A DNA stretch of 63,765 nt, filler included, from an uncultured virus (IMG/VR IMGVR_UViG_2049941000_000602) (Duplodnaviria > Heunggongvirae > Uroviricota > Caudoviricetes). It is 12 parts of one record of this genome, joined end to end, with 100 filler letters (N's around TTAATTAATTAA, not from the genome) between each part and the next. Parts side by side here need not be neighbours in the genome. Positions count along the whole stretch, not along the records: positions 26,249 to 43,347 come from IMGVR_UViG_2049941000_000602; 11 more parts are not named here. One strand, written 5' to 3'. Below the pieces are notes generated by a model. The model did no database searches, was not told where the DNA came from, and saw only the letters and a program-made list of their open reading frames with translations. The position numbers and the translations under genes were made by a program. Positions 5,306 through 43,697 of this stretch are shown one piece after another. Position 1 is the first letter of the stretch, and each line of letters starts with the position of its first letter.

Positions 5306-5455
5306 GATATACCCTCTTGGTTATCCGCTTTCGTGCGTAGTTTATGGCCCGATAACCTGGCCATTTTCGTTNNNNNNNNNNAGGGTACGAAAAAAGGCGA
5401 CGAAGCATCTCTCCGTCGCCGTGCTGTGCGCGAATCCCCAGACCAGGAGGTTCAT

Positions 5456-17566: not shown

Positions 17567-17909
17567 GCTCCTTCATATTTGGCACAAGCCAAGTAATCAA
17601 AACATTTAACTAAAGAACAGTTTATGCTTTCTTCGCCTGACGGTATCCGGGCGGCCCCTCATTTTTACGGAGATACAATGGAAGACGAGGAAGTAATCGA
17701 CATATGGCGGGCCATACTCATGGCGTACCTGGTGGACGGGAAGGAGGACCCGGTCGACGGAATGTTCATGGACGACTGGGAAGATTAGCCATCTTGGCCT
17801 CCTTGATTAATGAACCACACCATGTGATTCGTTATCAAGGGAGTTCTATGACCCCGAACCGCTGTGGTACGACGACTACGACGACTGAATACGTAAATTN
17901 NNNNNNNNN

Positions 17910-19895: not shown

Positions 19896-19996
19896 NNNNN
19901 NNNNNNNNNNNNNNNNNNNNNNNNNNNNNNNNNNNNNNNTTAATTAATTAANNNNNNNNNNNNNNNNNNNNNNNNNNNNNNNNNNNNNNNNNNNNT

Positions 19997-20690
19997 CTAC
20001 ACGAAGACGGAAACCGGTACCCTGCTCGACGGAAAGGTGGACACGGTAACCGGCAAGGGTCTTTCCACCAACGACTACACCACCGAGGAAAAGAACAAGC
20101 TTACCGGCATCGAGACGGGGGCGCAGGCCAACGTAATAGAATCCGTCAAGGTAGACGGCACGGCATTGACCGTAGATACGAACAAGGCAGTGAACATCCC
20201 GTTGGCGTCTGCCACCGATTCGGGGAACGAGACTGTTTATGTGACGGGTGTGGTGACCGGTCAGGACAAGGAAAAATGGGACAGCTGGGAAACCATTTCG
20301 GTGACTATACCAGACCATTCATTGGATGGTTTTCTGTACTTGACCTACTTCGAGAATCTTGAACCTTACGCCGTATCCAGAACTACCGATACCCCTGTTA
20401 TCGGTGATATTACTTACTACTGGCATTACACCGGACATGCGACGGTGCCATCTACTATCAATGAATATGTGGAAAGTTCCTACACGGGCTTACCTGCAAT
20501 GACCGTGCTAGCCAGTGATAGTAATAGCATGACGGTAGAAAACCGCCAAGGGTTTGCCGAACGCAGCACCGTACTAGACCTTCTGCAAAGCGTAGAAACA
20601 TTCTCGTTTGAGGTCATACTGAATATAGGCTCATTTGAGGGTCTATGGGGCGGTTTGGCTTTCGGGTGCTCGGCAGGCGAGTCAAACTAT
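19997..20690 (+). CDS. Fibre protein: shaft repeat plus start of LamG-like head (partial)
   Basis: KVD.VTGKGLSTNDYTTEEKNKLTGIETGAQANVIESV, then switch to FLYLTYFE.. head resembling 36154..37031. Confidence 0.7.
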
Positions 20691-21984: not shown

Positions 21985-22084
21985 NNNNNNNNNNNNNNNN
22001 NNNNNNNNNNNNNNNNNNNNNNNNNNNNTTAATTAATTAANNNNNNNNNNNNNNNNNNNNNNNNNNNNNNNNNNNNNNNNNNNN

Positions 22085-25307: not shown

Positions 25308-26443
25308 TCAAGGGTAGGCAGAATCTCGTCGAACTGCCAGGACTTTTTCCTCTGCACGCTGTCGGACACCGTCATTGCTGTCGACATCTTCTCCGCATAG
25401 TCCTTCGGCCCCTTGTACCGGCAATGAAGTATCCTCATGCGTTCGTCGTACAACTTATACGGACATTTCGGTATGCCGACTCCCTGGATGTNNNNNNNNN
25501 NNNNNNNNNNNNNNNNNNNNNNNNNNNNNNNNNNNNNNNNNNNNNNNNNNNNNNNNNNNNNNNNNNNNNNNNNNNNNNNNNNNNNNNNNNNNNNNNNNNN
25601 NNNNNNNNNNNNNNNNNNNNNNNNNNNNNNNNNNNNNNNNNNNNNNNNNNNNNNNNNNNNNNNNNNNNNNNNNNNNNNNNNNNNNNNNNNNNNNNNNNNN
25701 NNNNNNNNNNNNNNNNNNNNNNNNNNNNNNNNNNNNNNNNNNNNNNNNNNNNNNNNNNNNNNNNNNNNNNNNNNNNNNNNNNNNNNNNNNNNNNNNNNNN
25801 NNNNNNNNNNNNNNNNNNNNNNNNNNNNNNNNNNNNNNNNNNNNNNNNNNNNNNNNNNNNNNNNNNNNNNNNNNNNNNNNNNNNNNNNNNNNNNNNNNNN
25901 NNNNNNNNNNNNNNNNNNNNNNNNNNNNNNNNNNNNNNNNNNNNNNNNNNNNNNNNNNNNNNNNNNNNNNNNNNNNNNNNNNNNNNNNNNNNNNNNNNNN
26001 NNNNNNNNNNNNNNNNNNNNNNNNNNNNNNNNNNNNNNGTTGTCTTCTCCCAGGGCGAGCAGGTAGCGCCACACGTGCCGGGAAAATTTCCGCATCATTG
26101 GAGAATCCCGGTAGATGTTGAACGCCTGCCCGATTGCGCCTCGCCAGCNNNNNNNNNNNNNNNNNNNNNNNNNNNNNNNNNNNNNNNNNNNNTTAATTAA
26201 TTAANNNNNNNNNNNNNNNNNNNNNNNNNNNNNNNNNNNNNNNNNNNNCCTCCTTGAACCTCTTCGGGAACAGGTGTTTCCAGCGGATGGCGAACATGTC
26301 CATGTGTGGGAACTTGTTCCGGTAGTACATGACACCGTCGTAGATTGACGGGAAGTCGCCTATGTCCAGGAATTCGTCGTCATCGAGCGGGATTATCCAT
26401 TCGGCGTTGGAGCGGCACTCGACGTAGGAGTCGTAGAGGCGGT
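25304..26443 (-). CDS. Fragments (middle and C-terminus) of the two-domain glycosyltransferase
   Basis: EWIIPLDDDEFL (DxD), overlap with allele at 28295..29274, C-terminus ILHCRYKG..Y.EK; pieces lie on both sides of a scaffold linker. Confidence 0.7.
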
Positions 26444-26713
26444 NNNNNNNNNNNNNNNNNNNNNNNNNNNNNNNNNNNNNNNNNNNNNNNNNNNNNNNNN
26501 NNNNNNNNNNNNNNCGAATATTCAGGGTCAGGGTCATAGCCATCTCTTAAATATCCAAAATTTATAAACCAGTTATTATCAATTTCGGCAACATAAGTAT
26601 TATTCACTACTGAATATGGATAGTCTCCATAATCTTCCCATTCTGCGAAACGCCATGTTCCATATTGTGCACTTCCATTTTCGCCGAATGTATTATATGG
26701 GCANNNNNNNNNN

Positions 26714-27669
26714 CGGCCCCGAACCCGTCAAAGCCATATCCATAGTAGAACGTGCCTGCCGGAAGCAGAGAAAACCCGTACGAGTCCGAGTCGCCACCCC
26801 AACTGCTTGCCGGGTACTCAGACACCACTGAATCCGTGGCAGCCTTNNNNNNNNNNNNNNNNNNNNNNNNNNNNNNNNNNNNNNNNNNNNNNNNNNNNNN
26901 NNNNNNNNNNNNNNNNNNNNNNNNNNNNNNNNNNNNNNNNNNNNNNNNNNNNNNNNNNNNNNNNNNNNNNNNNNNNNNNNNNNNNNNNNNNNNNNNNNNN
27001 NNNNNNNNNNNNNNNNNNNNNNNNNNNNNNNNNNNNNNNNNNNNNNNNNNNNNNNNNNNNNNNNNNNNNNNNNNNNNNNNNNNNNNNNNNNNNNNNNNNN
27101 NNNNNNNNNNNNNNNNNNNNNNNNNNNNNNNNNNNNNNNNNNNNNNNNNNNNNNNNNNNNNNNNNNNNNNNNNNNNNNNNNNNNNNNNNNNNNNNNNNNN
27201 NNNNNNNNNNNNNNNNNNNNNNNNNNNNNNNNNNNNNNNNNNNNNNNNNNNNNNNNNNNNNNNNNNNNNNNNNATACCAGACTGTCCTGGCTTAAAGAAC
27301 CAGAATCCGGTACATTCGTTCAGCTGGTACCAGTTACCGTCGTCTCGGCGTTCACCGGTCGGATATGCGCAGAACCCGTAGTCATCGGTATCAGTGCCGT
27401 TTTCCCAGTTAGTTTTCGATTTTACCTTGCTCGCGTCATTGCCGATGTACGTGATTAGGGTCTCATAGTCATTCCTGACGGGGACTCGCCATCCGTCGGG
27501 CAGTATGTTGGCCTCGTAAAGTGCCTGACAAGCATAGTAGTCGTAGCTAAGTCCATAATGCTGGTATGGTTGGTCGGATGCATTTCCGTAGTAGGCACAT
27601 GCGTTCGAGTATCCTGTGGCGCTCGACGCGAGGAACCGGCATCCACTGAATTTCCACTCCAGGTTCTCG
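26714..27669 (-). CDS. Fib_succ_major domain fragments
   Basis: GDSDSYGFSLLPAG; WKFSG...YGLSY..PDGWRVP...GTDTDDYGFCAYPTG in two pieces. Confidence 0.7.
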
Positions 27670-27679
27670 NNNNNNNNNN

Positions 27680-28284
27680 ATCAATCACTGTTCCACCATA
27701 ACCATCGCAGAACGATGTCCTTGCGATTGCACCTAGTGGATACGAATTTCCTTCACCATCATCTACGGTAATCGGGTCGCCATTTCCGTCGACAAGGCCG
27801 ATGCTATCTATGGCTTGGTGAGAACTGGCACATGCATATTCGGTGATTGCATACGTTATCACCATGCGCTCGCCGGTATTTAGTGTAACCGAGTTCTCCC
27901 CTAGCTCTATGCGACTGAACATGTCCCCAACATTCCATGACTGGCTGCCGAATGCGGTTGAAAATGTAGTGCTTATTGCGCAGAAGAACCCGACCTCCTT
28001 GATAGTCACGTTGTCCTCGGTGACCTTCAGTGAGTTGTTGGTAACTCGGTGGGTACTTCTGATATCCCCGGCGATGTAACTGTCAGCAGTTGTCCCTCGT
28101 ATACTCTTGTCAGCCGTTCCAGGAATATAATGAGATGAACTGTACTTGTTCCCGCTGGAATCCAGGTATGGAGAAACCAGGTCAGTCATGTTATATGTAG
28201 TTCCGTTTGCTGATTCACCGGTACCAATTGCGGTAAACCATGTCATCCTAATCCATAGGCCCTCGTCATAAGCACGCTGGTTTT
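27680..28284 (-). CDS. Baseplate/tail-fibre attachment-like protein (fragment)
   Basis: AIGTG...T..MTDL, IKEVG, MFSRIEL....TL..GE...ITY.I pattern. Confidence 0.55.
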
Positions 28285-28294
28285 NNNNNNNNNN

Positions 28295-29274
28295 TGGTAG
28301 GCCTGCCCCTCGACGAGCTCGTACGTGACCCTGCCACCGTATTCCTCGCAGATTGACTTGACGTCGTAGCCGGACTCGTTGTCGAAAACGTGTATTCGGT
28401 CGAACTTGCAGACGTTGAGGTGATGGTCCAGCCATTCCCGGATGTCATCGGGGTTGAGATACTTGGTCAGCAGCATCGCCTCGGTCCTGTACCTGTATTC
28501 TGTCGGGAATATGATTTTCTTGTCGAAGCGGTGCGGGTATACCGGCTTGTTGCAGAGGTAGTAGTACTGGTCGTAGTTGTTGTACGTTATGACAGGAGTC
28601 TGCGTGAAGTGCCCGCAGTATGTCATGTAGGTGGACTGCACTATCTGCAGGCTGGTGACGAATACCTTTAGCTCCGGGTATCTCGCGAGCAGCTTGTGGA
28701 CCACTATTTCGTCTATCCTGACCGGCTTATTGTCTTCTCCCAGGGCGAGAAGGTAGCGCCACACGTGCCGGGAAAATTTCCGCATCAATGGAGAATCCCG
28801 GTAGATGTTGAACGCCTGCCCGATTGCGCCTCGCCAGCCTTCCTGGCCGAACTTCTTGATGAACTTCTTCAGGGCTTCTACGTCGTGGCCGGATACCCGG
28901 ACCGGCTTACGCTTGAGCCATTCCTCTATCTTGTGCTCATCGGACTTGTAGATGGAGCAGAGCACGGAGTAGTCCGAACCTGACTTGTCGAACGCGGTCA
29001 CGATGCTGGACAGTGAATCGTGAATCTGGACCGAGGAATCGATTGTGACTACTATCGGGGTGGAGGCGAATTCGAACGGGTGGTGCCGGACGTAGTAGGT
29101 GGCGTAGAGGGGGTCCTTCTTGGATAGTACGGGGTCGACTATGACCTTCCAGTTTTTTGAAGGAATTTCCTTGTCGGTGACGTAGACATATTCGGCATCC
29201 GGGTCGACGTGTTCCGGTTCGCGGAGGATGTCGTAGTTGCCGAAACAGTAGGATATGATAGTGTATTTAGGCAT
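28295..29274 (-). CDS. Two-domain glycosyltransferase (DUF616/MUCI70-like plus GT-A family 2/92-like)
   Basis: YTIISYCFGNYDILREP...DAEYVYVTD...W; second domain IREWLDHH....FDRIHVFDNES. Confidence 0.8.
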
Positions 29275-29310
29275 AATTTGAATTTGCTATTTATTAGACA
29301 ATATAACAAA

Positions 29311-29338
29311 AAGTGAACGGCATTGCTACCGTTCACTT
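29311..29338 (-). terminator. Terminator hairpin (variant copy at 29620..29647)
   Basis: AAGTGAACGG-N8-CCGTTCACTT with T tract on the minus strand; second copy has a compensatory A-T to G-C pair. Confidence 0.8.
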
Positions 29339-29762
29339 AATAGTTAATAACCTAGTCTAATAGACTAGCCGACATACGGTGACGCACCACCTGAACCATT
29401 ACTTATACATTTCCATGCAAGTGTGCCATCACTNNNNNNNNNNNNNNNNNNNNNNNNNNNNNNNNNNNNNNNNNNNNNNNNNNNNNNNNNNNNNNNNNNN
29501 NNNNNNNNNNNNNNNNNNNNNNNNNNNNNNNNNNNNNNNNNNNNNNNNNNNNNNNNNNNNNNNNNNNNNNNNNNNNNNNNNNNNNNNNNNNNNNNNNNNN
29601 NNNNNTACAATATAACAAAAAGTGGACGGCATTGCTACCGTCCATTTTAGATTTAAGAAAGACAATTGGTTATTAATGTACCGGTAACTCGGATGACTGT
29701 GTTTTAATCGTATAGCCATGACCTAGAACGGTAATTTGAACAAATGTATTATNNNNNNNNNN

Positions 29763-30225
29763 ACACAATTTCATCAATCTGGGTATCCGGGTCACGTTGC
29801 ACAGTCAAGAACTTCCCGGCCTTGTCTCCGGCCGGTGGAACTGGATTTGCTACACTTAGTTTGCGACGGTCGTCACTAAGATAGCCAACCGTCACAATTG
29901 TAAGCGATGTATCATAATCTATCTCAAGTTTTCCGTTAACTTCACGCAGTCCATCATCTGCTAGGCTCTCTGCGGTCGGGATTGCTGGGATTATTGCTAC
30001 GCCATTACTCACGACACTGCTGCCGTCTACAGTGACGTCGGTAACCGGCACATCCGGCTTGATTGCACTCAGCGGCACGTTCACGTTAGTGTTTTCCCCG
30101 CCGACGCTGGTTTTGCCGTACGTGGTCACCGCCGCGTTGGCAAGGTACGTTGCCTGGTCTGCCTGGCTCAGCTCTTCGAGCTTGGGGTACTCGCTCATCC
30201 TCTGGCCATGAATTTCGTCTGCCAT
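29763..30225 (-). CDS. Fibre-like protein N-terminal part
   Basis: MADEIHGQRMSEYP, VTDVTVDGSSVVSNGVA.IP, NPVP....AGKFLTV; late motif at 30257..30264. Confidence 0.65.
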
Positions 30226-30297
30226 GGAATCCTCCGGATTCTAACTGTTTAATTCTAGTTTATATATCCGTATTCTCCCGGGAAACCCCGGGCCGTC

Positions 30298-30424
30298 CTA
30301 GGAGGCGTCCTTGACGAGACGGACCGACATTGCGTGGGGACGCCCATCATAATCCGAATCGATGGTGGTGCGGCTGACCCGAACCAATAACCCAAGGTCG
30401 CTGCTATTCTTTTCCGGGGTCCAT
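30298..30424 (-). CDS. Fib_succ_major C-terminal fragment
   Basis: Hand translation WTPEKNSSD...AMSVRLVKDAS*. Confidence 0.7.
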
Positions 30425-31674
30425 NNNNNNNNNNNNNNNNNNNNNNNNNNNNNNNNNNNNNNNNNNNNNNNNNNNNNNNNNNNNNNNNNNNNNNNNNNNN
30501 NNNNNNNNNNNNNNNNNNNNNNNNNNNNNNNNNNNNNNNNNNNNNNNNNNNNNNNNNNNNNNNNNNNCGACCACGGTGAACCCCCCGTAGTTCGCGAGCG
30601 CGGTATCGATTGCGGTCGTCACCTGTTCCATGGTGGCCTTCGAGGCGATGGACTCGTGGATGTTGGCCCCGGTGTGGTCCTCGTAGGCCCTCCGGGCGCC
30701 GAANNNNNNNNNNACCGTTAAGAACTCTCCGCGATGTTGATTGGTGCCTGGTGCAGGCACCGGATTGGTAAGGGTTAATTCATTGTTGTTAGTCCCGCCA
30801 AGTTTAAACTGGTCATTTTTATAATTCAATCCGAAGCTATATCCGGACATCGTGATAGGATAATCTGCAGAATATGTTGGAATGTTTACGTCAGACCATT
30901 CAAGGTTACCGCCTTGGGCAACTGTGAGTACTTTTTGAAAATCATGTTCCGCGTCAATCTCAGGAAGGACATCCACTGTATCCCATTGTGTACCATCTTC
31001 ATTAGCGTTGACTGTAAGTACTTTTCCGGCGTCGCCGGCTTGAATAGTCGGCAGGGCTTCCCCNNNNNNNNNNNNNNNNNNNNNNNNNNNNNNNNNNNNN
31101 NNNNNNNNNNNNNNNNNNNNNNNNNNNNNNNNNNNNNNNNNNNNNNNNNNNNNNNNNNNNNNNNNNNNNNNNNNNNNNNNNNNNNNNNNNNNNNNNNNNN
31201 NNNNNNNNNNNNNNNNNNNNNNNNNNNNNNNNNNNNNNNNNNNNNNNNNNNNNNNNNNNNNNNNNNNNNNNNNNNNNNNNNNNNNNNNNNNNNNNNNNNN
31301 NNNNNNNNNNNNNNNNNNNNNNNNNNNNNNNNNNNNNNNNNNNNNNNNNNNNNNNNNNNNNNNNNNNNNNNNNNNNNNNNNNNNNNNNNNNNNNNNNNNN
31401 NNNNNNNNNNNNNNNNNNNNNNNNNNNNNNNNNNNNNNNNNNNNNNNNNNNNNNNNNNNNNNNNNNNNNNNNNNNNNNNNNNNNNNNNNNNNNNNNNNNN
31501 NNNNNNNNNNNNNNNNNNNNNNNNNNNNNNNNNNNNNNNNNNNNNNNNNNNNNNNNNNNNNNNNNNNNNNNNNNNNNNNNNNNNNNNNNNNNNNNNNNNN
31601 NNNNNNNNNNNNNNNNNNNNNNNNNNNNNNNNNNNNNNNNNNNNNNNNNNNNNNNNNNNNNNNNNNNNNNNNNT

Positions 31675-31901
31675 ATCCCTTTAGCTCTAATTTCTGAACT
31701 AGGATTTAGGGCATTACCACCTTGCCACCTACAATACTCTGTATATCCAGTATTAACAGGTTCCCAACTTGGAATATAATTACTGCAAGTCCAGAGTTTA
31801 TTACCAATTTTAGTAACTTTATACTCACGGCCATCAATCATTGCACTCGATGGGAATCCCCCACCTTTACTAATACTATTTCCGCCATGCGTCAGAATCA
31901 T
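31675..31901 (-). CDS. Short-leader Fib_succ_major protein (N-terminal fragment)
   Basis: GGAG RBS; MILTHGGNS...IDGREYKVTKIGNKLWTCSN. Confidence 0.65.
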
Positions 31902-33011
31902 ACCCAGTCTCCTACGCCGGAGCCTCGNNNNNNNNNNNNNNNNNNNNNNNNNNNNNNNNNNNNNNNNNNNNNNNNNNNNNNNNNNNNNNNNNNNNNNNNN
32001 NNNNNNNNNNNNNNNNNNNNNNNNNNNNNNNNNNNNNNNNNNNNNNNNNNNNNNNNNNNNNNNNNNNNNNNNNNNNNNNNNNNNNNNNNNNNNNNNNNNN
32101 NNNNNNNNNNNNNNNNNNNNNNNNNNNNNNNNNNNNNNNNNNNNNNNNNNNNNNNNNNNNNNNNNNNNNNNNNNNNNNNNNNNNNNNNNNNNNNNNNNNN
32201 NNNNNNNNNNNNNNNNNNNNNNNNNNNNNNNNNNNNNNNNNNNNNNNNNNNNNNNNNNNNNNNNNNNNNNNNNNNNNNNNNNNNNNNNNNNNNNNNNNNN
32301 NNNNNNNNNNNNNNNNNNNNNNNNNNNNNNNNNNNNNNNNNNNNNNNNNNNNNNNNNNNNNNNNNNNNNNNNNNNNNNNNNNNNNNNNNNNNNNNNNNNN
32401 NNNNNNNNNNNNNNNNNNNNNNNNNNNNNNNNNNNNNNNNNNNNNNNNNNNNNNNNNNNNNNNNNNNNNNNNNNNNNNNNNNNNNNNNNNNNNNNNNNNN
32501 NNNNNNNNNNNNNNNNNNNNNNNNNNNNNNNNNNNNNNNNNNNNNNNNNNNNNNNNNNNNNNNNNNNNNNNNNNNNNNNNNNNNNNNNNNNNNNNNNNNN
32601 NNNNNNNNNNNNNNNNNNNNNNNNNNNNNNNNNNNNNNNNNNNNNNNNNNNNNNNNNNNNNNNNNNNNNNNNNNNNNNNNNNNNNNNNNNNNNNNNNNNN
32701 NNNNNNNNNNNNNNNNNNNNNNNNNNNNNNNNNNNNNNNNNNNNNNNNNNNNNNNNNNNNNNNNNNNNNNNNNNNNNNNNNNNNNNNNNNNNNNNNNNNN
32801 NNNNNNNNNNNNNNNNNNNNNNNNNNNNNNNNNNNNNNNNNNNNNNNNNNNNNNNNNNNNNNNNNNNNNNNNNNNNNNNNNNNNNNNNNNNNNNNNNNNN
32901 NNNNNNNNNTTGGGTGCATAGTTCTTGAACAGCCACACTTTCAGCTTGTCATAGAACCTTTGTAATCGCCTTACACTAACGTAATCTTCTGAAGCCATTT
33001 GTCAAACTCCT

Positions 33012-34138
33012 TTATGAAATCGTCCTGACCAGACGGAGCGAGAAGCCCTCATTCATACTAGTCGTACCATACACCACACACTGTTCTGGCGTATCTGCAT
33101 CTACCCCAACGCCAAACCCGGCAAACGAACTTGCACGACTCGACGCAGTATAGTCCTTTGTCCAGAAATTTGCGCTAGTTCCAAGTTCGATGAACGACGA
33201 ATTAAGATAGCGGCCAGCCGGTAAAACAGTGAAACCATAATTGTCTGTTCCGGACCATCCGCTAGGCCAATTGCTAGTCACGGAACCATCACGCGCCCTC
33301 AACAGGAGGCCACAGTTATATCTACTGCCAATATTGCCAATACGCTCGCCGATTTCATCCCACATTGTCGACCATTCATACCCGGACGGAACATGCCAAC
33401 CATCAGGCAACAATGTGTCCTTGTGTTCATTCAAGTACATGACCGCATATTGGTTATACAGAAGGCCGCACTTGTATGTTCCGTCGATTCCATAGGTGGC
33501 TGGCTCGTTGTTATAGTACCACGCGGCCGGTGTATCGATGAGACCGGGCTCGTCGACCGGAAGCGGAGAACCGTTACAGTCGAACTGGTAATCAAGATTC
33601 TCGGCTAGCCATTCCTGGTTGCCGATTGTAACTGTGCGGTACGTACGAGTGCCTATCACGACGGTAAACATGTTGTCAATTTCAGTGTCTGTTGCCTCGT
33701 CCATTTCAGGCAAGTCCACCTTCTTGAGGTAGGTCGTCTTGATGTTGTTGCCGTCCTGGTCTGCGTAGGTGCGGATGGCGCCGAATCCCTTCCCGGCGAA
33801 ACCGGTCCAGAGCTGGTCGGTGGCGCCGGCGTCGTAGATTGGTTCCTGGGTAGTCTCGTCAAGCATCGGAGCGTCATGCTCGTCGAGCAATTGTGTGCCG
33901 ACCATATCGCGGTCGAATGCTTTCCAAACCGTATCTCCTTGGTCGTCTACCGTTAGGACCTTGTCCTCGTCGGCCGAAGTGGACGCCGGTACTGACCTGA
34001 CTGTGTTCCAGTTGAACTTCTCCCCGGTGGTCACCAGGGAAAGCGCGGTGCCTCCCTCGGCTGCGTTCTTGCTGGTAAGCGATGATGCGGCCACGCCGGA
34101 ATCCTTGAGGTTGCCGGCTGAGTCGAACGATGCTACGT
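33012..34138 (-). CDS. Fibre protein with C-terminal Fib_succ_major domain (5' truncated)
   Basis: YRTVTIGNQEWLAENLDY, CGLLYN, PDGWHVPS, GTDNYGFTVLPAG, ANFWT, FSLRLVR. Confidence 0.9.
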
Positions 34139-34409
34139 NNNNNNNNNNNNNNNNNNNNNNNNNNNNNNNNNNNNNNNNNNNNNNNNNNNNNNNNNNNNNN
34201 NNNNNNNNNNNNNNNNNNNNNNNNNNNNNNNNNNNNNNNNNNNNNNNNNNNNNNNNNNNNNNNNNNNNNNNNNNNNNNNNNNNNNNNNNNNNNNNNNNNN
34301 NNNNNNNNNNNNNNNNNNNNNNNNNNNNNNNNNNNNNNNNNNNNNNNNNNNNNNNNNNNNNNNNNNNNNNNNNNNNNNNNNNNNNNNNNNNNNNNNNNNN
34401 NNNNNNNNN

Positions 34410-35430
34410 CAGGCGATGCTGCCGTTATAGTTAGATGTATTGAAAATACCGTTATTGTTTAAAGACGCGACATAGTAATAGTTATAGCCAGATTGTGAAA
34501 TTCCTGTTTGTGTCCAATATACTGCAACGCCTTGTGTATCAGTTCCATAATGCATCCAGGAATTACTCCATCCACTTCCGGGATAATCCCAATTGCCACT
34601 CGGGTCACCATGAAAACCAAATTCATCGGTACCGTTATTACTAGACCACCCGGAAACGGCTTTCAATTTATATCCGGCCGATGAACTAGAGCCAGCAACT
34701 GCGCCAAGGGCAATGAAGTCATCCCTGGTAGGTATACGCCAGCCAAACGGAAGCCAATTGGATGTACTAGAAAGCAAATCATTCAACGCGGCCATGTTAT
34801 ACATATATCCCCATTCCGGATGCGATGAATAAAGATACTGGCCAGCAGATGGCGTGCTGCCGGTACTATATCCAGTACCATATCCAGCTGGTGCGTAAGC
34901 CAAGTTTGAAGTCATCCAAATCAGGTCACCAATCTGTATTGCATTATAAAGTTTCCCGCCAACTTCTACGCCGTCAGGGAAAGTAAATTCTACAAAGTCA
35001 TCTTCCGATTCACCGTCCCACTGAACATTGCGTGTCCCGCTGTTGCTCATGATTGACAGCACGGCACCGTTCACGTGCCCTTCCGGGTTCGGAAGCTGCC
35101 TCGTGTTGTTCCAGTTGTACTTCTCCCCGGTGGTTACCAGTGACAGGTCTGTACCGCCGTCGGCGGCGTTCTTGCTGGTAAGCGAGGCCGCGGCCACGCC
35201 GGAATTCACCAGGTCCCCGCTGGAATTCAGCGCCGGTATGTTCCCCTCGGCGTTGGCCACTTTGTGGGTGAAATTTGACACGTCCACCGACGTTGTGCCT
35301 ATCACGTCCCACGTATTGTCCGAGGTGTAAATCCACTCGGTGTACGGGTCGGTTTCGGTGCTCCCCGGGTCCTTGTACAGGTAGATGAACCGCTCGGAAG
35401 GGTCCTGCACGTTGGGATGGCCGTCCACTA
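34410..35430 (-). CDS. Fibre protein with alternative Fib_succ_major head (partial)
   Basis: YNAIQIGDLIWMTSNLAY, WGYMYN, PFGWRIPT, AGYKLKAVSGW, GTDEFGF, YWT. Confidence 0.85.
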
Positions 35431-36153
35431 NNNNNNNNNNNNNNNNNNNNNNNNNNNNNNNNNNNNNNNNNNNNNNNNNNNNNNNNNNNNNNNNNNNNNN
35501 NNNNNNNNNNNNNNNNNNNNNNNNNNNNNNNNNNNNNNNNNNNNNNNNNNNNNNNNNNNNNNNNNNNNNNNNNNNNNNNNNNNNNNNNNNNNNNNNNNNN
35601 NNNNNNNNNNNNNNNNNNNNNNNNNNNNNNNNNNNNNNNNNNNNNNNNNNNNNNNNNNNNNNNNNNNNNNNNNNNNNNNNNNNNNNNNNNNNNNNNNNNN
35701 NNNNNNNNNNNNNNNNNNNNNNNNNNNNNNNNNNNNNNNNNNNNNNNNNNNNNNNNNNNNNNNNNNNNNNNNNNNNNNNNNNNNNNNNNNNNNNNNNNNN
35801 NNNNNNNNNNNNNNNNNNNNNNNNNNNNNNNNNNNNNNNNNNNNNNNNNNNNNNNNNNNNNNNNNNNNNNNNNNNNNNNNNNNNNNNNNNNNNNNNNNNN
35901 NNNNNNNNNNNNNNNNNNNNNNNNNNNNNNNNNNNNNNNNNNNNNNNNNNNNNNNNNNNNNNNNNNNNNNNNNNNNNNNNNNNNNNNNNNNNNNNNNNNN
36001 NNNNNNNNNNNNNNNNNNNNNNNNNNNNNNNNNNNNNNNNNNNNNNNNNNNNNNNNNNNNNNNNNNNNNNNNNNNNNNNNNNNNNNNNNNNNNNNNNNNN
36101 NNNNNNNNNNNNNNNNNNNNNNNNNNNNNNNNNNNNNNNNNNNNNNNNNNNNN

Positions 36154-37031
36154 TACCGGTAATTCGCACTCTGTTGGGAGCCGTGCAATACGTACATCAA
36201 ATTCCCGTTGGTATAATAGTACGATTCCTTGTTCACCAAGTCATCCACAACCGCTATGTGAGCAATCTTGTGACGGATATTGGTACCCATACGTAAATAT
36301 CCGGGCGAATAAGTGGTGTTGATACCGGAACCATTATACAAGTCATATCTATCGCACGAGCCTAAATACGGGCCAGATATAGGAAACTCGTAATACGTGA
36401 ACATAGGGTCTATCACTATCTGGGGACCACAGCCCAACGTTATGCCGCTACTGAAATCATAACGGTCTCCAGTTGCATATACCCACAGTTCGGAACTTAG
36501 AAAATCGATTCCTTCCGGAACAGGCTTGTTCACACAAGCTGGGCCACCGGTACCCGTACCGTATACGTCATATATGGCCGGATATGTCAAGCNNNNNNNN
36601 NNACTGGGCGTGTAGGATTGTGCGCCGCTCATGCTATATGCTTCGCCCACCAGCGGAGTATCTATTTTAGTCGTATTGTTGAAATTGTTGAAGTAGGTAA
36701 GGAACAGCAAGCTCACGGGGATGTCCATTTCCTCGGACTCCCATGCATCCCACGCCATCGCGTTCTGGGAGATACCGTAGGAGAGCATGGTGCCCTCCGC
36801 GCCGGGCGTGGGGGACTTGAGTATACCGTCTATGGCAGTCTTGGCCGCACCCGGGGTGAGCTCGGTGTCGGTCGAGTCGGACACGGCGTTCTCCAGCTGG
36901 TGAATCTCGGTTTTCCTGGCATAAGCCTCGTCGATGATGACGCCGTCACGGTCGCGCTCGGTGCGCTTGGCATAGAGCCCGTGGCCGTTGAAGCCTTTCC
37001 AGAGTTGATTGTCGTTTTCCGGTATTGACAT
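36154..37031 (-). CDS. Adaptor-plus-LamG-like head protein (3' truncated)
   Basis: MSIPENDNQLWKGFNGHGLYAKR adaptor; SELWVY, AHIAVV....YYYTNG. Confidence 0.75.
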
Positions 37032-37035
37032 ATTG

Positions 37036-37981
37036 CTACTCCGTCGGTTCGTATATTAGGCGCAGTGAAGTTTTATCGCTCATATTCAAATCGCCACTCT
37101 TTCGCGCGCTGTCCGAATTGTATGCAAAATATACGCATTCGTAATTGTACGACCCAAAGCTTACTGGCGTTCCAATATATGCGTGTGTCCCGATACCCCA
37201 CTGTGAAGTAAAGTATTCGCCAGCGGGTACTGCTCCGAAATTNNNNNNNNNNNNNNNNNNNNNNNNNNNNNNNNNNNNNNNNNNNNNNNNNNNNNNNTCC
37301 GTTTCCATCGTTATTCCATCCTGACGTACTTTTCAGTTTCTTGCCGGCAATCGACGCACCTCCGCACGTATTGAACAATGCTGTGTAATCTGTATAAGTA
37401 GCCACTCGCCATCCTGTTGGCAATAGGGTGCGCTTGTTGTCATCCAGGTATTTCGCGGCAAAATAGTTATATAAAAGGCCATACTTGTTACCATGCTGTC
37501 CGTAAGTAGTTTCGTCCAGTTCAGGGTAACATGCGCGGGGGCTGGCTGTATAGCCACCAGTGTCCAGTCTAAGGCCGTCCCACTGGTAATCCAGGTTGCG
37601 GCCTAGCCAGTATTGGTTTCCGATATGGAGTACCGGGTACTGTACTCCTCCTATGGTGACCATGGTATCCGGTACATCTATTTCCTCGGAATCCCATCCG
37701 GTCCACCCCAGTGCCGACTGTGTTCCCACGCAGAGGGTAGACGGCTGGTTCGCCGTGTCTGGAATCCTCACTATCGAGTTGATGGCCGTATTGACGGCGT
37801 TCGGTGTGACAGCCGTGGTCGTCGACTCGGTGAGGCCGTCGGTCAGCGCCGGGACTTCCGACTGCTTGGCGTAAGTAGTCACGATGTCTTCGCCGTTGCG
37901 GTCTTTCTCAGCACGCTTGGCGTACAGTCCGTGACCGTTGAATCCTTTCCAGAGTTGGGTGTCATTTGATGGAATCGTCAT
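37036..37981 (-). CDS. Adaptor-plus-Fib_succ_major protein
   Basis: MTIPSNDTQLWKGFNGHGLYAKR adaptor; IGNQYWLGRNLDY, YGLLYN, PTGWRV, AGKKLKSTSGW, SLRLI. Confidence 0.88.
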
Positions 37982-37995
37982 ATGTCCCTCTAGTA

Positions 37996-39042
37996 TCAGT
38001 CGATATAGAACTTGTTCGGCAATTCGAACGATTCAGCATCATTATATTTCGGATAGTCCCATACAGCCAACTGGGCGACATCATAATAGCCTAGCTTCTG
38101 TCTATAATTGCTATCGTTCATGTAGTTATACATCCATATCGTATATGCATCCTCATAACTATTCGCATGCAACCAATCAGTTAACGAGTGCGAGGAAGGA
38201 TATACCCTATTGCCGTCAATGTATACTTGAACCCGGTCATAGTTTGCCCCAATGCTGCCAGAATGTGTAACGGTATATGCAACATGATGCCATGCCGAAT
38301 CCCAGGATGGCGAAATAATATCGCCGCTTCCATTGATAACCAGTTGACCCCATGCCCATCCACCGGTAGAATATCCATATAGACATGCGTTCGAATTAGA
38401 TATCATCAGTTTACATGAATTTGGACCTAGTCCAGCAGTATCACGTACCCATGCGCTGGATTCCGATGTTCGTATATAATATTCAACAGTAAACCCAGTT
38501 GACGAATCAACTATATCGGCCAGGCTATATGCTGTAGATGACACCAAGCTGCCAGTATCATTAAAGCGAGCGTATGGAACTGCGTTCCCAAATGTTGAAC
38601 TTTGCTGAATATTGAAATCGGTAGGCAAGCCAGTTTCAACGGATGTAAATACTGATGCGTCTGCCGACTTTCCAAGACGGTAGCCATCTTGGAAATAGTC
38701 CAATATGACGCAATGTTTTGGGAGAATTTCAGGAACATCAATTTCCTCGGTTTCCCAGCCTCCCCAAGCCAAGCTTCCTTGACTTTCCGAGTACAGCGAC
38801 GAGGGAGTCTGCGGGAGCGTCGGTATGACATCCACTTCCGCGATGGCGTCCTTCACAGCCTTCGGCGTGATTGCCGTCGTGGTCGACGTGGACAGTGCGT
38901 TGTCCAGGTCCGGGACGTCGGCCTTCTTGGCATACGTCTGGTCGATTACGTTGCCGTCGACGTCACGCTCCGCCCTCTTCGAGTAGAGTCCGTGGCCGTT
39001 GAAGCCCTTCCATAGCCGGGTATCGTTTTCAGGAATCGACAT
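37996..39042 (-). CDS. Adaptor-plus-LamG/concanavalin-like head protein
   Basis: MSIPENDTRLWKGFNGHGLYSKR adaptor; FTVEYY, WHHVAYT, QVYIDG, AQLAVWDY. Confidence 0.85.
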   Translation of the reverse strand: MSIPENDTRLWKGFNGHGLYSKRAERDVDGNVIDQTYAKKADVPDLDNALSTSTTTAITPKAVKDAIAEVDVIPTLPQTPSSLYSESQGSLAWGGWETEEIDVPEILPKHCVILDYFQDGYRLGKSADASVFTSVETGLPTDFNIQQSSTFGNAVPYARFNDTGSLVSSTAYSLADIVDSSTGFTVEYYIRTSESSAWVRDTAGLGPNSCKLMISNSNACLYGYSTGGWAWGQLVINGSGDIISPSWDSAWHHVAYTVTHSGSIGANYDRVQVYIDGNRVYPSSHSLTDWLHANSYEDAYTIWMYNYMNDSNYRQKLGYYDVAQLAVWDYPKYNDAESFELPNKFYID

Positions 39043-39045
39043 CGA

Positions 39046-40548
39046 CTATTCTCCTGCCGGCAAGGTACCCTTGACTAGACGGACAGCACAGCCGAATTGC
39101 TTGCTGAAATGGCTCATCGCTCCCGTATTATCGCCATAAATTACTCCATACCACTGTTCGCTTCCCGCACTCGCAGTTTCAGAACACCAGTAGTATGCAT
39201 TATTATAATCGTATGAATTNNNNNNNNNNACCATATGTAGTTTCATCACCCCCGCGATAAGTAGCGCAGGCCTTGTTTGAGCTAGTCGTCGTAGTTATGG
39301 TTAATTCGTTCCACTTGTAGTCGAGGTTCTCAGTCATCCATTCCAGGTTACCAATCTTCACGAATCCGTATTCTCGGCCGCCTATCGAAATAGTCTTCGG
39401 TCCGAAATCCTCGATTTCCCATGTCACCGGCGCCCATGTAGCCCCGTCCGCACTGAACAGCATCTGGTTGGCCGCCACCGGGTCGGGCACGGCCTTCGGG
39501 ATGGAGATGTTGACGTTCTTGTTGACGATGGTGGTCGGCGTGTCATTGACCGTGATGCTCTCGATTCGGTTAGCCTGCGCCCCGTTCTCGATACCCCCCA
39601 GCTTCGACAAGGCGGCCGACACGTCGNNNNNNNNNNTTGACGGCACCGCATGGAATCCTGTGGTATCGGTACACGGTATATTCCAGGCATCCCACCTGTT
39701 GCCGGTTGCGCGCAGGCTCTGTATGTCGCCGCTGTACGTCGTATATATGCCATATGAGGGCGTTGCCGTACATCCTATAGACACAAACAAGTCATTAAAA
39801 TCCGCCATGTTTGGCACACGCCACCCGGCCGGTGCAATAGTGGCGATATTGGTATCTATGTATCTGACTGCGGTACCATTGTACAGCAAGTTCCACTTAT
39901 ATCCGGTCGGCCCATATGTATTTTTGTCTTCTTTATAATAAGTAGCGCAGGCACTAGACGAGCTACTCGTCGAGGTTATGCTTAATTCGTCCCACGTGTA
40001 GTCGAGGTTCTCAGTCATCCATTCCAGGTTACCAATCTTCACAAATCCGTATTCTCGGTCGCCTATCGAAATAGTCTTCGGTCCGAAATCCTCGATTTCC
40101 CATGTCACCGGCGCCCATGTAGCCCCGTCCGCGCTGAACAGCATCTGGTTCTGTGCGGAAGGGTCCGGCACCGCCTTGGGGATGACGATGTTCACGTTCT
40201 TGTTGACAGGCGTGACGGCTACGTTGTTTACCGAGATGCTCTCGATTTTGTTGACCTGTGCGCCTTTGGCAATTCCGCTCAGCTTGTACTGGTCGTCATA
40301 CGTATAGAACGGACACCTGAGGTCATCTTCTTTCGTCCAGTGTTCGTTTCCGCTTGACGTATACTTAATTATTGTGTAAGTGATTGAGTTGTACTCCACA
40401 TACTCCGGTTCAGTATAAATAGTCGGTTCGGTATTAAGGAAAGTGGCACTGATATTACCGGCCTCGTCCATAAAATACGAATGAAGCCAATACATCGTAT
40501 TCTCTTTCTCGTAATACTGCGGACTGGCCGGAGTAATGTACCGCAAAC
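39046..40548 (-). CDS. Fibre protein with Fib_succ_major head (two allelic versions interleaved across gaps)
   Basis: KLSGI..GAQ.N.IESI shaft, YGFVKIGNLEWMTENLDY seen twice, AYYW, CAVRLVK; further allele at 43448..43597. Confidence 0.8.
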
Positions 40549-40558
40549 NNNNNNNNNN

Positions 40559-41190
40559 CACTCGCCCTCGGGGTCCCCGGGTTCCCAAATCCATTCCTTG
40601 TAGTGGTCCGGGTCGGGTGTCCCGGGAATCTCGGTCAGGTAGATGTAGTTCGGGGAGCGGTCGGCCATCGGCACGTCCGGCTTCCCGTCCTGCCCCCTGT
40701 CGGCCACCTTGTATCCGCCGACATGCCTGAGAGCCTCCTTGACTGCAGCCGGGGTAATTGCCGCATTTACGTCAGCCGATTCGATATCTGAAGTGAGTTT
40801 AACTACGCCCTTCATGGACATGTCGGCATTCGGGATATTTACCGCTTTTCCAGTCGGAGTCAACGGCTCGCCGCCAACGGTTATGGTTTCGATGACGTTG
40901 GCCTGTGCTCCCTCGGCAATGCCGGAAAGCTTAGCCTGCTCTTCGGTGGTATAGGCCGCGGTGGTCGCGTCGAGGATGTCCTTGTTCTCGTGGGTATGGT
41001 CGTCCCGCACCGCGCTTTCCAGCTCGGCCGCGGAAACCCCGGCGTCCTCCAGGGAACCGTCCTCGGTGAACTTGCCCATGTTGCCTTTTGCGCCGGGCAC
41101 TTTCGGGATGCGGGCGTCGATATGTTCCTCGACCCTCTTGTAGAGTTCCTGCGCTCCCGCCTTGCCTACATATACTTTCTCGCTAGCCAT
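40559..41190 (-). CDS. Fibre protein N-terminal part
   Basis: YVGKAGAQELY, HTHENKDILD, YTTEEQAKLSGIAEGAQANVIE, KGVVKL, DGKPDV...YIYL...HYKEWIW. Confidence 0.8.
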
Positions 41191-41956
41191 TGTCAACCTC
41201 GTCGAGCCATGCTCTCATTTCCGCCGCGCTGCATTCCCTGGTGTTGTCCACGTCGGCCCAGGTGCCGTCCCCCTTGAGGAACTTGTCGTGGTCCGTCTTC
41301 TTCGGGGCGGGTACGAATCCCATCCTTCCTGCCACCGTGACCGTGGCCCCCTTGAACACGCCCGGCTTGTTTTTGATGTAGTCGGACTTGGTGTCGTCAT
41401 CCTGTGCCCAGTCGGACTGTTCCTGCTTCGGTATTACTATCGGTGCCCAGGTTCCGTCGCCGCGGAGGAACCTGTTGCGCTCGTACTTTGCCGGGGCGGG
41501 CACCGTGCCGGGCTTGCCGTCCTCTGTCGACGTGGCACCGACGAAGTCGTACACTCCCAGGGGATTCCCGGGTGTGCCGTCGCCGTACAGCACGTCCTCC
41601 GACGCCTCGTCAATCTTCACCGGCCACTGCACGGAGTTGACCGTGTAGGTCGCCAGCGTGTTGTCGGAGGTCACTTCCTTGGTTACCGTGATGTGCTCGC
41701 CGGCCACCACCTCGACTTCCGGGGCGTGCCTGTAGATTTTCGGGGGGCATCCCCATGCCGGCTGCGGCTCGGGAGGACCCGGGGGAGGAGGCGGCGGGAA
41801 TGCCGGTACGAACGGGCCGCAGCAGCCTGCCCGGTGCATCGGCACGTAGCCTGGAACCATGTTCACGAACGGGTCCGGGTATGTCCTGGACGGGATGTAT
41901 TCGACCGGCCCTTTCTTGGGCGGCGGCGGGGGCGGCATGCAGTCACAGTGTCTCAT
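41183..41956 (-). CDS. Fibre-associated protein with Pro/Cys-rich N-terminus
   Basis: MRHCDCMPPPPPP..; L.GDGT..NPL, two G.VPAP....FL.GDGTW repeats, QSDWAQ.D.....YIKNKP; ATG 7 nt after ATAAACT. Confidence 0.75.
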   Translation of the reverse strand: MRHCDCMPPPPPPKKGPVEYIPSRTYPDPFVNMVPGYVPMHRAGCCGPFVPAFPPPPPPGPPEPQPAWGCPPKIYRHAPEVEVVAGEHITVTKEVTSDNTLATYTVNSVQWPVKIDEASEDVLYGDGTPGNPLGVYDFVGATSTEDGKPGTVPAPAKYERNRFLRGDGTWAPIVIPKQEQSDWAQDDDTKSDYIKNKPGVFKGATVTVAGRMGFVPAPKKTDHDKFLKGDGTWADVDNTRECSAAEMRAWLDEVDNG

Positions 41957-42037
41957 GTCAGACAGTTTATGTCGAATAGGTACAAAAAACGACACCGGGG
42001 AGACCCCGGTGCCGAAATAATGTTGTTGCGGATTTGG

Positions 42038-42670
42038 CTATTCCATGCCCTCGCTGAACACGATTCCGTTCCCGTCCTCGGTGTCGTCCTCGGACACGGT
42101 GAGCATGTTTTCCTTTATACGGCGTACCTCGGCCAGCTGTGCGGAAAGCTCGCGCTCGATACGGGCGAGACGCTTCATCTCCTCTTCCGGCGTGTGCGAC
42201 GACACCGTGTAGGTCTTGTTGCCGGTACTGGAGTCGACCGACATCGACACGTCGACGTTGTCGCCGGCCTCGACGCTGATTTCCCTCTTTGCGAGCCAGT
42301 ACACGTACGGGTGCGGGGCTGTGCGGAGGCCGTCGTAGTCCATCGGGCTCCTCTTGTCCGCTTCCGCCGGGCGTTCCGGCAGTGNNNNNNNNNNNNNNNN
42401 NNNNNNNNNNNNNNNNNNNNNNNNNNNNNNNNNNNNNNNNNNNNNNNNNNNNNNNNNNNNNNNNNNNNNNNNNNNNNNNNNNNNNNNNNNNNNNNNNNNN
42501 NNNNNNNNNNNNNNNNNNNNNNNNNNNNNNNNNNNNNNNNNNNNNNNNNNNNNNNNNNNNNNNNNNNNNNNNNNNNNNNNNNNNNNNNNNNACACGGACA
42601 TCCAGTGGTTGCCCGGCACGACGGCGCTCCTGTATTCAGGCGTTACCTTGTCGAACGGTGTCCTCGGCAT
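42038..42670 (-). CDS. Hypothetical structural protein (gapped)
   Basis: V.AGDNV.V...Y.VSS fibre-like motif; TAATG coupling to upstream gene; hairpin plus T tract at 41985..42014. Confidence 0.55.
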   Translation of the reverse strand: MPRTPFDKVTPEYRSAVVPGNHWMSVXXXXXXXXXXXXXXXXXXXXXXXXXXXXXXXXXXXXXXXXXXXXXXXXXXXXXXXXXXXXXXXXXXXXXXLPERPAEADKRSPMDYDGLRTAPHPYVYWLAKREISVEAGDNVDVSMSVDSSTGNKTYTVSSHTPEEEMKRLARIERELSAQLAEVRRIKENMLTVSEDDTEDGNGIVFSEGME

Positions 42671-43110
42671 TACTTACCCCTTGAAACTTTCCTTGTCTTC
42701 TTAATGGGCTTTCCCGGCATCTCCAGAATCTTCTCGTGGAGCTCGTGGACGTAGCAGTTGCCGCCAAGGGCGCTGTACACCTGGTACATCTCGATGAAGT
42801 CCTTCCGGTCGTACTCCTCGACGTATCCCTTGGCGATGGACTCGTTGTATATGTCGGTGAGGTCCTTCCTCAATGTGGCGATGAGTGCGGCCTTTTCCAG
42901 CGCATGGTCCTCGCCGTACGAATCCAGCTGCTTGGACATCTTGTCCACGTACTTTTCCAACTTCTCGTACCGGCTCTGGTGGCTTAGCTTTTCCATCAGC
43001 CACTTGTTGAGCGGCTTGACAATCGCTGCAATGAGGGCGAAGAGTCCCGTAATCGCGACCAAAAAGGAGGAAAACAGCTGGATATGCGATGTCAATTGTG
43101 CGAGGTCCAT
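42670..43110 (-). CDS. Phage membrane protein, holin-like family
   Basis: N-terminal TM helix, coiled segment, LR..L...Y.....KGY......F..MY..Y.ALGGN...H.L..K...P motif; late promoter at 43143..43150. Confidence 0.6.
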   Translation of the reverse strand: MDLAQLTSHIQLFSSFLVAITGLFALIAAIVKPLNKWLMEKLSHQSRYEKLEKYVDKMSKQLDSYGEDHALEKAALIATLRKDLTDIYNESIAKGYVEEYDRKDFIEMYQVYSALGGNCYVHELHEKILEMPGKPIKKTRKVSRGK

Positions 43111-43697
43111 TTTCTCGAAAGCCCTGAAGTTCTATGCATTGCAGTTTATACCGAAAGAGCCGGCGCGTGTACCGGCCGGCTCCTTATTTAAACGGTATTT
43201 CTTTATGTCGCGGTCTTCCTGCGGCGCCACTCGTCGGCGAACCGCTCGNNNNNNNNNNTGTGAGTTTAACTACGCCCTTCATGGACATGTCGGCATCCGG
43301 GATATTTACCGCTTTTCCAGTCGGAGTCAACGGCTCGCCGCCAACGGNNNNNNNNNNNNNNNNNNNNNNNNNNNNNNNNNNNNNNNNNNNNTTAATTAAT
43401 TAANNNNNNNNNNNNNNNNNNNNNNNNNNNNNNNNNNNNNNNNNNNNACCCCGGTCTGTGCAGTTTCATTGCTGTTAATCATACAATACCATTGGTCGCT
43501 TCCCGCATTCGCAGTTTCCGAACCCCAATAATATGCATTTGCATAATCAATGAACGGCTGAACCGTTTTCCACCTGGTTGACGGCACCGCATGGAATNNN
43601 NNNNNNNNNNNNNNNNNNNNNNNNNNNNNNNNNNNNNNNNNTTAATTAATTAANNNNNNNNNNNNNNNNNNNNNNNNNNNNNNNNNNNNNNNNNNNN

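Follow-up and report, generated by a model that had tools for sequence, protein, structure and literature searches.

The stretch of DNA analyzed here (the window; 63,765 nucleotides (nt), from the uncultured virus IMGVR_UViG_2049941000_000602) carries three consecutive minus-strand genes, A, B and C, whose proteins begin with a common N-terminal module of ~105 residues and continue into lectin-type C-terminal domains, the heads (Table 1). As an initial annotation of the locus had reported, the genes start at 39042, 37981 and 37031 and are separated by only 14 nt (A-B) and 4 nt (B-C); a Shine-Dalgarno-like GGAG/GAGG sequence is found 4-8 nt 5' of each start. The same annotation described the gene junctions as free of gaps, which is correct for the junctions themselves; runs of N lie inside B and C, and their lengths are not true lengths, since the two short gaps correspond to just 4 and 6 residues in relatives.

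Shared module and lectin-type heads

BLASTP local alignments among the trio were confined to residues 1-107/120 (A/B, E 4e-39 and 55% identity; A/C-type, E 9e-35 and 50%; B/C-type, E 1e-36 and 50%), with the similarity ending at the motif W..WE.EE.D.P. Over the module alone, the identities among the three genes are 56, 53 and 48%. These values bear out the annotated common module (48-56% identity, E of 9e-35 or better), and both consensus motifs given for it were correct. Modules of the wider family fall into three types, A, B and C, named for the three genes. Identity within and between types is 88% and 71% for residues 1-40, 78% and 41% for residues 41-92, and 69% and 55% for residues 93-105, and the module may accordingly be laid out as a common box, a slot-type-specific middle segment and the W..WE.EE.D.P junction, respectively.

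Base composition changes at the same point. The annotation stated that the DNA turns AT-rich right after the junction and, indeed, G+C is 0.575-0.607 in the modules vs 0.43-0.50 in the heads, while third-codon-position G+C (GC3) is 0.69-0.80 in the modules vs 0.395-0.62 in the heads of A, B and C. As GC3 falls from module to head, the G+C drop lies at synonymous sites. Eleven of 14 other window genes for which GC3 was computed have values of 0.77-0.87 (the remaining three, 0.74, 0.70 and 0.33). The step is clear in four of five neighbouring fibre genes computed and small (0.63 to 0.57) in one, and the heads of a related contig, L002, likewise have low GC3. That the heads keep a low GC3 while the genome at large is GC3-rich suggests that they turn over fast and are drawn from a more AT-rich pool. 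As a separate observation, an open reading frame (ORF) of ~380 residues at 17909-19048 (minus strand) has a GC3 of 0.33 vs ~0.8 in core genes and no Pfam or PHROG match; it may be another compositionally foreign gene.

The gene B head matches the Pfam family Fib_succ_major (PF09603 / TIGR02145) with 50.4 bits (cut-off 33.9, E 4.2e-13), and this match spans profile positions 2-112 of 187 up to the N run. PF09603 is also present in P0034, a complete relative, and in others, and the tail piece of gene B (P0003) aligns with the end of the relative in locus L001. A PDB profile search with a complete B-type protein returned nothing significant. The function of Fib_succ_major is described as little known in the accessible text of PMC5758913.

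For the gene A protein (P0001) there was no Pfam match at E <= 0.05. Laminin_G_3 (PF13385) matches two of 11 aligned relatives of gene A (best E 7.2e-12), these two being 37-39% identical over 94-96% of the protein, and a profile search against the PDB matched entry 4qvs (E 8e-5) and laminin LG domains (E 0.02). Relatives of this head are few, with only 21 among 1.84 billion representatives. An AlphaFold2 (AF2) model of the head alone, from 29 sequences, is all-beta with a mean predicted local distance difference test score (pLDDT) of 91.0 and a predicted template modelling score of 0.91, and in structural comparison (VIA) it scored Z 13.8 (root mean square deviation 3.9, 194 aligned) to 10.5 over 50 ConA-like entries, with Z 13.8-12 for jelly rolls of lectin-like modules and lyases. 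Its structural neighbours are lectin-like modules of sialidases and polysaccharide lyases, accessory domains of the glycoside hydrolase families GH16 and GH43, the lectin-like half of clostridial neurotoxin binding domains and the lectin module of a streptococcal minor pilin. Foldseek E values for such neighbours are ~1e-6; against the PDB it gave 284 matches at E <= 0.001, and the best 50 of these were nearly all the lectin-like jelly-roll half of clostridial neurotoxin binding domains, with one alginate lyase. In the viral library BFVD, roughly one-third of 50 listed matches were named, and these were mostly phage proteins labelled LamG or ConA-like. These include the "LamG domain-containing protein" of Erwinia phage Ea35-70 and Ralstonia phage RSL2, which the head A jelly roll resembles (Foldseek E ~1e-6, TM 0.5) with a sequence identity of only 10-16%, the likeness covering the fold of the head alone. 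As modelled, then, the gene A head is a ConA/LamG-like jelly roll. In another lineage, the metagenomic proteins P0049, P0050, P0052, P0058, P0060 and P0062 (~250 residues), a LamG-type head of the gene A family follows not the 105-residue module but a short conserved N-terminal peptide of ~15 residues, which may be a second kind of attachment tag for this head family.

The gene C head, truncated in the window, belongs to a family (H2) in which none of 10 members has a Pfam match; complete gene C relatives (P0043, L002_C) are 339-341 residues long. An hhalign comparison of H2 with the gene A head family (H3) gave a probability of 49.6% with a shallow profile and 80.7% (E 1.3e-5, 178 columns) with a deep one, and the link passes through core strands. 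A PDB profile search with H2 found nothing significant (E 0.014, unrelated hydrolases), and an Atlas look-up gave CBM_4_9 at 0.90 as a sub-threshold lead only. From the profile comparison, a remote relationship of the gene C head to LamG is likely. Neither H2 nor H3 is related to the Fib_succ heads (hhalign probability <= 1%). Hence the annotated assignment of a LamG-like, a Fib_succ_major and a second LamG-like head holds for B directly and for A through the AF2 model and relatives, while for C it has a profile-profile link only. The heads of A and C probably share a single fold as distant homologues, so the "three different heads" come down to two folds.

Head exchange across the junction

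We assembled 49 proteins (40 homologues of A from databases, the window trio and six genes of loci L001-L003), cut each at the junction and clustered the heads. The heads comprise five kinds: H1 (Fib_succ; 20 proteins), H2 (the gene C kind; 14), H3 (LamG; 12), H4 (2) and H5 (1). Type A modules carry H1 in 13 proteins, H2 in five, H3 in six and H5 in one; type B modules, H1 in six, H2 in two and H3 in four, with no other kind; and type C modules, H1 in one, H2 in seven, H3 in two and H4 in two. Among the proteins counted are one duplicate (L002_A = P0011) and three partial sequences. All nine pairings of A/B/C with H1/H2/H3 were found; fixed adaptor-head pairings, which the annotation had considered as contrary evidence, are therefore not a property of this set. 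A second search, with a C-type seed, gave 20 proteins whose C-type rows are 76-90% identical over the first third. Besides the known H2, H4 and Fib_succ heads, rows P0065, P0053 and P0056 have a precomputed Laminin_G_3 match; the head-kind counts above cover the 49-protein set and not these new proteins.

With the duplicate and the three partial proteins dropped (45 rows), 62 pairs have modules that are at least 85% identical and heads without a BLAST match. For example, the modules of P0006 and P0028 are 97% identical and their heads are unrelated. Conversely, the heads of P0030 (type C) and P0031 (type B) are 71% identical on modules that are 48% identical. A maximum-likelihood tree of the 45 modules contains three clades, of 22, 12 and 11 rows, with Shimodaira-Hasegawa-like approximate likelihood ratio test supports of 97, 93 and 99. 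Head kind requires at least 17 changes on this tree (minimum possible 4, shuffled mean 22.1), and four of 200 shuffles were as low as 17.

The breakpoints can be seen in L002, a related contig of 104 kb that keeps the order of a long fibre gene followed by A', B' and C'. L002 has three additional module genes as well as another Fib_succ gene, and it encodes eight consecutive proteins of this kind, seven with Fib_succ_major heads. The A and B modules and the whole of gene C as present in the window align with L002, while neither head A nor head B has detectable similarity to it (Table 1). At the base level, identity stops after the D-V-P codons and returns at the ATG of the next gene, so the replaced unit consists of the head, the stop codon and the spacer.

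Contigs of four public runs (X1, X5, X6 and X19), aligned to positions 37298-39219, agree with these breakpoints; as contigs rather than reads, they bear on presence only. Between 38732 and 37982, where the window has 749 letters, one X5 contig has 495 different ones, and another X5 contig carries the window's own head across 38732. A low-depth X1 contig (4.1 vs 49.8) departs from the A module at 38732 and, read by eye, continues into the start of the P0013 head. An X6 contig departs from the B module at 37674 into a P0035-type head, also read by eye. A 44.8-kb contig of X19, from another study, keeps the window's A-B arrangement. On these contigs, one adaptor is joined to different heads, the arrangement that the annotation proposed to look for. 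Taken together, the nine pairings, the 62 pairs, the tree and the breakpoints strongly support head exchange across the conserved junction. By these sequence comparisons, the heads are cassettes, bounded 5' by their own module and 3' by the module start of the next gene, and their replacement has happened repeatedly among related phages as well as from one slot type to another.

Because the window is built from chained contigs, N runs are frequent in it and the X1 run has minor variants (depth 4 vs 37-50), assembly could conceivably have created the tandem trio or the head combinations, either from strain alleles collapsed in series or through chimeric joins across the conserved module. This is very improbable. 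The A-B(-C) order recurs in L002, in L001 and in the X19 contig, the modules are too diverged for alleles at 48-56% identity, and the combinations were drawn from ENA, JGI and Logan assemblies. The recurring tandem order also agrees with the annotation of the trio as true paralogs and not strain alleles.

The proposal that the conserved junction is itself a recombination point fared less well, as nine module sequences gave no DNA-level sign of it. Their longest invariant run is 8 nt, the third base is kept in only nine of 33 invariant-residue codons, and the longest exact matches between the window paralogue types are 10, 17 and 14 nt. With few kept third bases and exact matches of 10-17 nt, a dedicated recombination site at the junction was rejected as unsupported, which makes flanking homology and selection at the domain boundary more likely. 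Mosaicism also occurs inside the module: the B heads of the window and L001 are ~95% identical and nt 120-240 of their modules ~65%. Exchange would proceed by homologous recombination of co-infecting relatives through the two flanking modules (~315 nt, 78-92% identity). Rarer moves between slot types would use short homology, and joints elsewhere than at the domain boundary would be lost to selection.

Fib_succ_major/DUF1566-type domains are a known target class of diversity-generating retroelements (DGRs; accessible text of PMC5758913 and PMC8143477), and head diversity could in principle arise mainly by DGR action on C-type-lectin-like Fib_succ_major heads. The array shares with DGR-diversified C-type-lectin receptor-binding proteins (Bordetella phage Mtd; Bacteroides phage targets), as these papers describe them, a lectin-type C-terminal head of the Fib_succ_major class as the variable part. 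However, it swaps whole heads of unrelated folds, whereas DGRs mutagenize the adenines of a few codons. Moreover, no reverse-transcriptase family was detected among 69 ORFs or ORF pieces scanned (13 at E <= 0.01, 56 at E <= 1e-4), no template/variable repeat pair was found in 20000-41300, and the differences between the window and L001 B genes lack adenine bias. A main role for a DGR is scarcely credible on these findings; N-masked stretches could hide an element. Invertible or shufflon-type switching, as in the Mu G segment and the P1 C segment, does not fit genes that all point the same way and possess a start and a complete module of their own. The heads are not flanked by true inverted repeats; such pairs as were detected came from N-linker palindromes or from similarity of Fib_succ sequence to Fib_succ sequence on another contig piece.

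A putative tail-docked array

Gene A lies 3 nt after the stop codon of a long fibre gene that is similar to tail fibres in its N-terminal region (phrog_2126 tail fiber, E 1.1e-4; tail-fibre PHROG matches, E 1e-4 to 8e-3). We favour, with a probability of about 0.7, a reading in which the trio belongs to a compact array of genes, all in one orientation, in a large uncultivated phage of gut metagenomes, the array encoding short fibre-type proteins with swappable lectin-type heads that dock on the tail. Each protein, of ~300-350 residues, would combine a resident N-terminal module with an exchangeable, monomer-sized head of carbohydrate-binding type. The module would oligomerize and attach the protein to the tail, the probable site being the long fibre of the adjacent upstream gene or a position next to that fibre, and the heads would bind host-surface glycans. 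One virion could then display several specificities, and a lineage could change its host range by head swapping. A stalk-and-dock role of the module is reasonable to propose from the genomic context, given the tail-fibre PHROG matches of the upstream gene, the lack of a strong terminator between array genes and a 637-residue fibre, P0046, that ends in the same junction and a LamG head. The trio itself is real, but three is an undercount of the set, as more distant module copies are found elsewhere in the window (Table 1).

Virion decoration adhesins, located on capsid or tail and holding the phage to plant fibre, mucus or biofilm, would have many of the same properties, with swaps that tune habitat adherence rather than receptor use. 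The folds are general carbohydrate-binding folds, and neighbours of the gene A head are carbohydrate-binding-module-like and lectin-like modules of glycosidases and lyases. In addition, a cadherin-domain protein is also encoded (53304-54524), Pfam and PHROG scans recognized no baseplate genes adjoining the array, and the public runs containing the trio sequence are labelled gut metagenomes. Yet the gene preceding the array matches tail-fibre PHROGs and has the same junction and head kinds, and the rapid wholesale replacement of heads between close relatives is the known pattern of receptor-binding proteins, as described in the accessible text of PMC6872550. We therefore regard adhesins as unlikely.

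The proteins could also act outside the virion, if the infected cell exported them or displayed them on its surface, for instance for receptor masking (superinfection exclusion) or host-surface modification. Such a role draws on the indirect placement of the proteins in the virion and on bacterial Fib_succ_major proteins, which are often surface lipoproteins (accessible text of PMC5758913). It is highly unlikely, considering that no signal peptide or lipobox is evident by eye, without a predictor, in the N-terminus M-S/T-I-P-E-N-D..LWKGF, that the module contains a tail-fibre-repeat-like motif and that long fibre proteins also end in a junction and head.

A variant of the tail-docked array, in which the type-specific middle segments would bring slots A, B and C together in a single heterotrimeric stalk with three independently swappable heads per fibre, in place of three homo-oligomeric fibres, is compatible with the recurrence of the A-B-C order, the conservation of residues 41-92 by type and the monomer-sized heads. 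We consider it quite improbable; if true, L002 would encode two such trios.

Several points weigh against the tail-docked array or the exchange data on which it draws. Virion location of the array proteins is predicted from gene context, and glycan binding by the heads from fold and family. The module has no PHROG or PDB relative (best E 0.088 in the PDB profile search). Phage_fiber_2 (PF03406) reaches 21.9 bits on gene A residues 46-70, below its cut-off of 22, and sub-threshold matches to it occur in seven of 11 and six of 10 aligned members of the A and C families, a resemblance only. An AF2 monomer of the whole gene A protein, from 11 sequences, has a pLDDT of 41.4, and its module part is unconfident at 23-40; such values would fit a segment that folds only on assembly. 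Close module relatives are located only at the N-terminus of proteins of 194-350 residues, and the search found no longer fused forms, which is weak evidence. The first half of the module is also present inside longer L004 and L002 proteins, so the module may be a stalk repeat and not a dedicated socket. Selection, rather than foreign origin, could explain the low head GC3. Type A is over-represented in the 49 proteins because the search was seeded with gene A. Finally, much of the combination evidence comes from metagenome contigs, in which misjoins across ~315 nt of near-identical module could yield chimeras.

Modular receptor-binding design is already known, and this family is new within it. 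In the accessible text of PMC6872550, PMC11414711 and PMC8262889, receptor-binding proteins are encoded side by side in the multi-protein systems of Klebsiella phages (KP32, Menlow and PhiK64-1 groups) and in the branched complexes of Ackermannviridae (TSP1-4), and one specificity domain is described behind different N-terminal elements (PMC6872550). The array resembles these systems, as there described, in having an N-terminus (an anchor or "conserved peptide" in those systems) conserved among related phages and a horizontally exchanged distal specificity domain. It differs in that the neighbouring N-terminal elements of the trio are mutual paralogues, of three slot types plus more distant ones, and in that its proteins are short with monomer-sized lectin-type heads, not beta-helical depolymerases. 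Pfam and PHROG scans of the neighbours detected no T4gp10-like docking domain, although these libraries may not detect such a domain. No related loci were found in IMG/VR by protein or alignment search, a phage collection gave no tblastn match to the family, and no description of it was found in literature on phage Fib_succ_major/TIGR02145 (DGR papers only) or on rumen jumbo-phage tail fibers.

Host recognition by large uncultivated gut phages is poorly understood, and the array would be a clean natural example of plug-in receptor-binding design. Its boundary is known to the codon, after D-V-P and before the next ATG, with at least five head kinds and three conserved slot types. Host-range prediction from metagenomes could read the heads rather than the whole gene, and the module could provide a compact scaffold for lectin-domain display. 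The sharp GC3 step could be a simple marker for such cassettes elsewhere, and raises the question of the origin of the heads.

Neighbouring fibre genes and other features of the window

Table 1 Features of the array, its neighbourhood and the window, with nucleotide identity to L002.
Feature	Position	Strand	Details
Gene A	39042..37996	-	348 residues, complete
Gene A module, type A, residues 1-105	38728..39042	-	ends in WGGWETEEIDVP; GC3 0.724
Gene A head, kind H3	37996..38727	-	ConA/LamG-like jelly roll (as modelled), 243 residues + stop codon; GC3 0.395
Gene B	37981..37036	-	incomplete in window: 55-N run 37243-37297
Gene B module, type B	37667..37981	-	GC3 0.686
Gene B head, kind H1	37036..37666	-	Fib_succ_major; GC3 0.47-0.52
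Gene C	37031..<36154	-	incomplete in window: 10-N run 36593-36602; 3' end lost in 723-N run 35431-36153
Gene C module, type C	36714..37031	-	GC3 0.802
Gene C head, kind H2	36154..36713	-	truncated; no Pfam model for H2 family
Window vs L002, gene A module region	39044-38732		91.7% nt identity
Window vs L002, head A			no detectable similarity
Window vs L002, gene B module region	37990-37666		77.6% nt identity
Window vs L002, head B			no detectable similarity
Window vs L002, gene C	37033-36154		92% (whole gene C as present)
Upstream long fibre gene	39046..41196	-	split by 10-N runs; two Fib_succ_major heads, each after a W..V.WE.ED junction
Downstream fibre gene fragment	34412..35428	-	Fib_succ_major head, E 2.1e-12; both ends in N runs
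Further fibre gene	33015..34136	-	Fib_succ_major head, E 4.8e-26
Two module genes, other contig piece	22487-23506, 23499-24797	+	distant LW..(F/Y).GKGF module start; hidden Markov model (HMM) E 1.4e-10, 0.076
Distant module copy, LW..F.G.G type	4940-5320	-	at gene start; found with module HMM
N44-TTAATTAATTAA-N44 linkers	21985-22084, 26149-26248, 43348-43447		plus eight similar sites

The long fibre gene matches Fib_succ_major with an E of 3.1e-13 and Phage_fiber_2 with an E of 0.002 (18.1 bits, below the 22-bit cut-off). It contains a 270-nt direct repeat, 89% identical (39257-39526 and 39938-40207), and through this duplication the fibre carries two junction and Fib_succ_major units in one protein. 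Its L002 counterpart is 736 residues long. Downstream of gene C, the fibre gene fragment has a GC3 of 0.736 before its head vs 0.398 in it, and in the further fibre gene the first half of the module recurs internally (residues 107-155, HMM E 6.4e-11), directly before the head. The two plus-strand module genes on another contig piece end in Fib_succ_major heads (E 6.1e-16 and 1.5e-15). In L002, a gene with a family-2 glycosyltransferase domain (18875-20437, E 4.7e-9) lies just downstream of the lectin-headed array.

The window consists of contigs chained by N44-TTAATTAATTAA-N44 linkers, with many further N runs whose lengths are not true gap lengths. From these linkers, the window is a concatenation of separate contigs in which the order and orientation of the pieces are arbitrary; the trio is located within the piece 26249-43347. 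Genes typical of large phages are present, encoding PhoH, a Dda-like helicase, an RNA ligase, a Clp-type prohead protease, an anaerobic ribonucleotide reductase activase and a clamp-loader-like AAA protein, and contigs of up to 412 kb carry homologues of the genes studied here.

Among minor features, the cadherin-domain ORF at 53304-54524 (minus strand, Pfam E 1.8e-22) encodes a further candidate for adhesion or decoration. A direct repeat of 109 nt (26040-26148 and 28730-28838; copies 98% identical) has one copy at the very end of a contig piece and probably reflects redundancy in the assembly or variation between strains. A repeat of 53 nt (29298-29350 and 29607-29659; copies 87% identical) contains a GC-rich hairpin in AT-rich intergenic surroundings and may be a repeated terminator or regulatory element.

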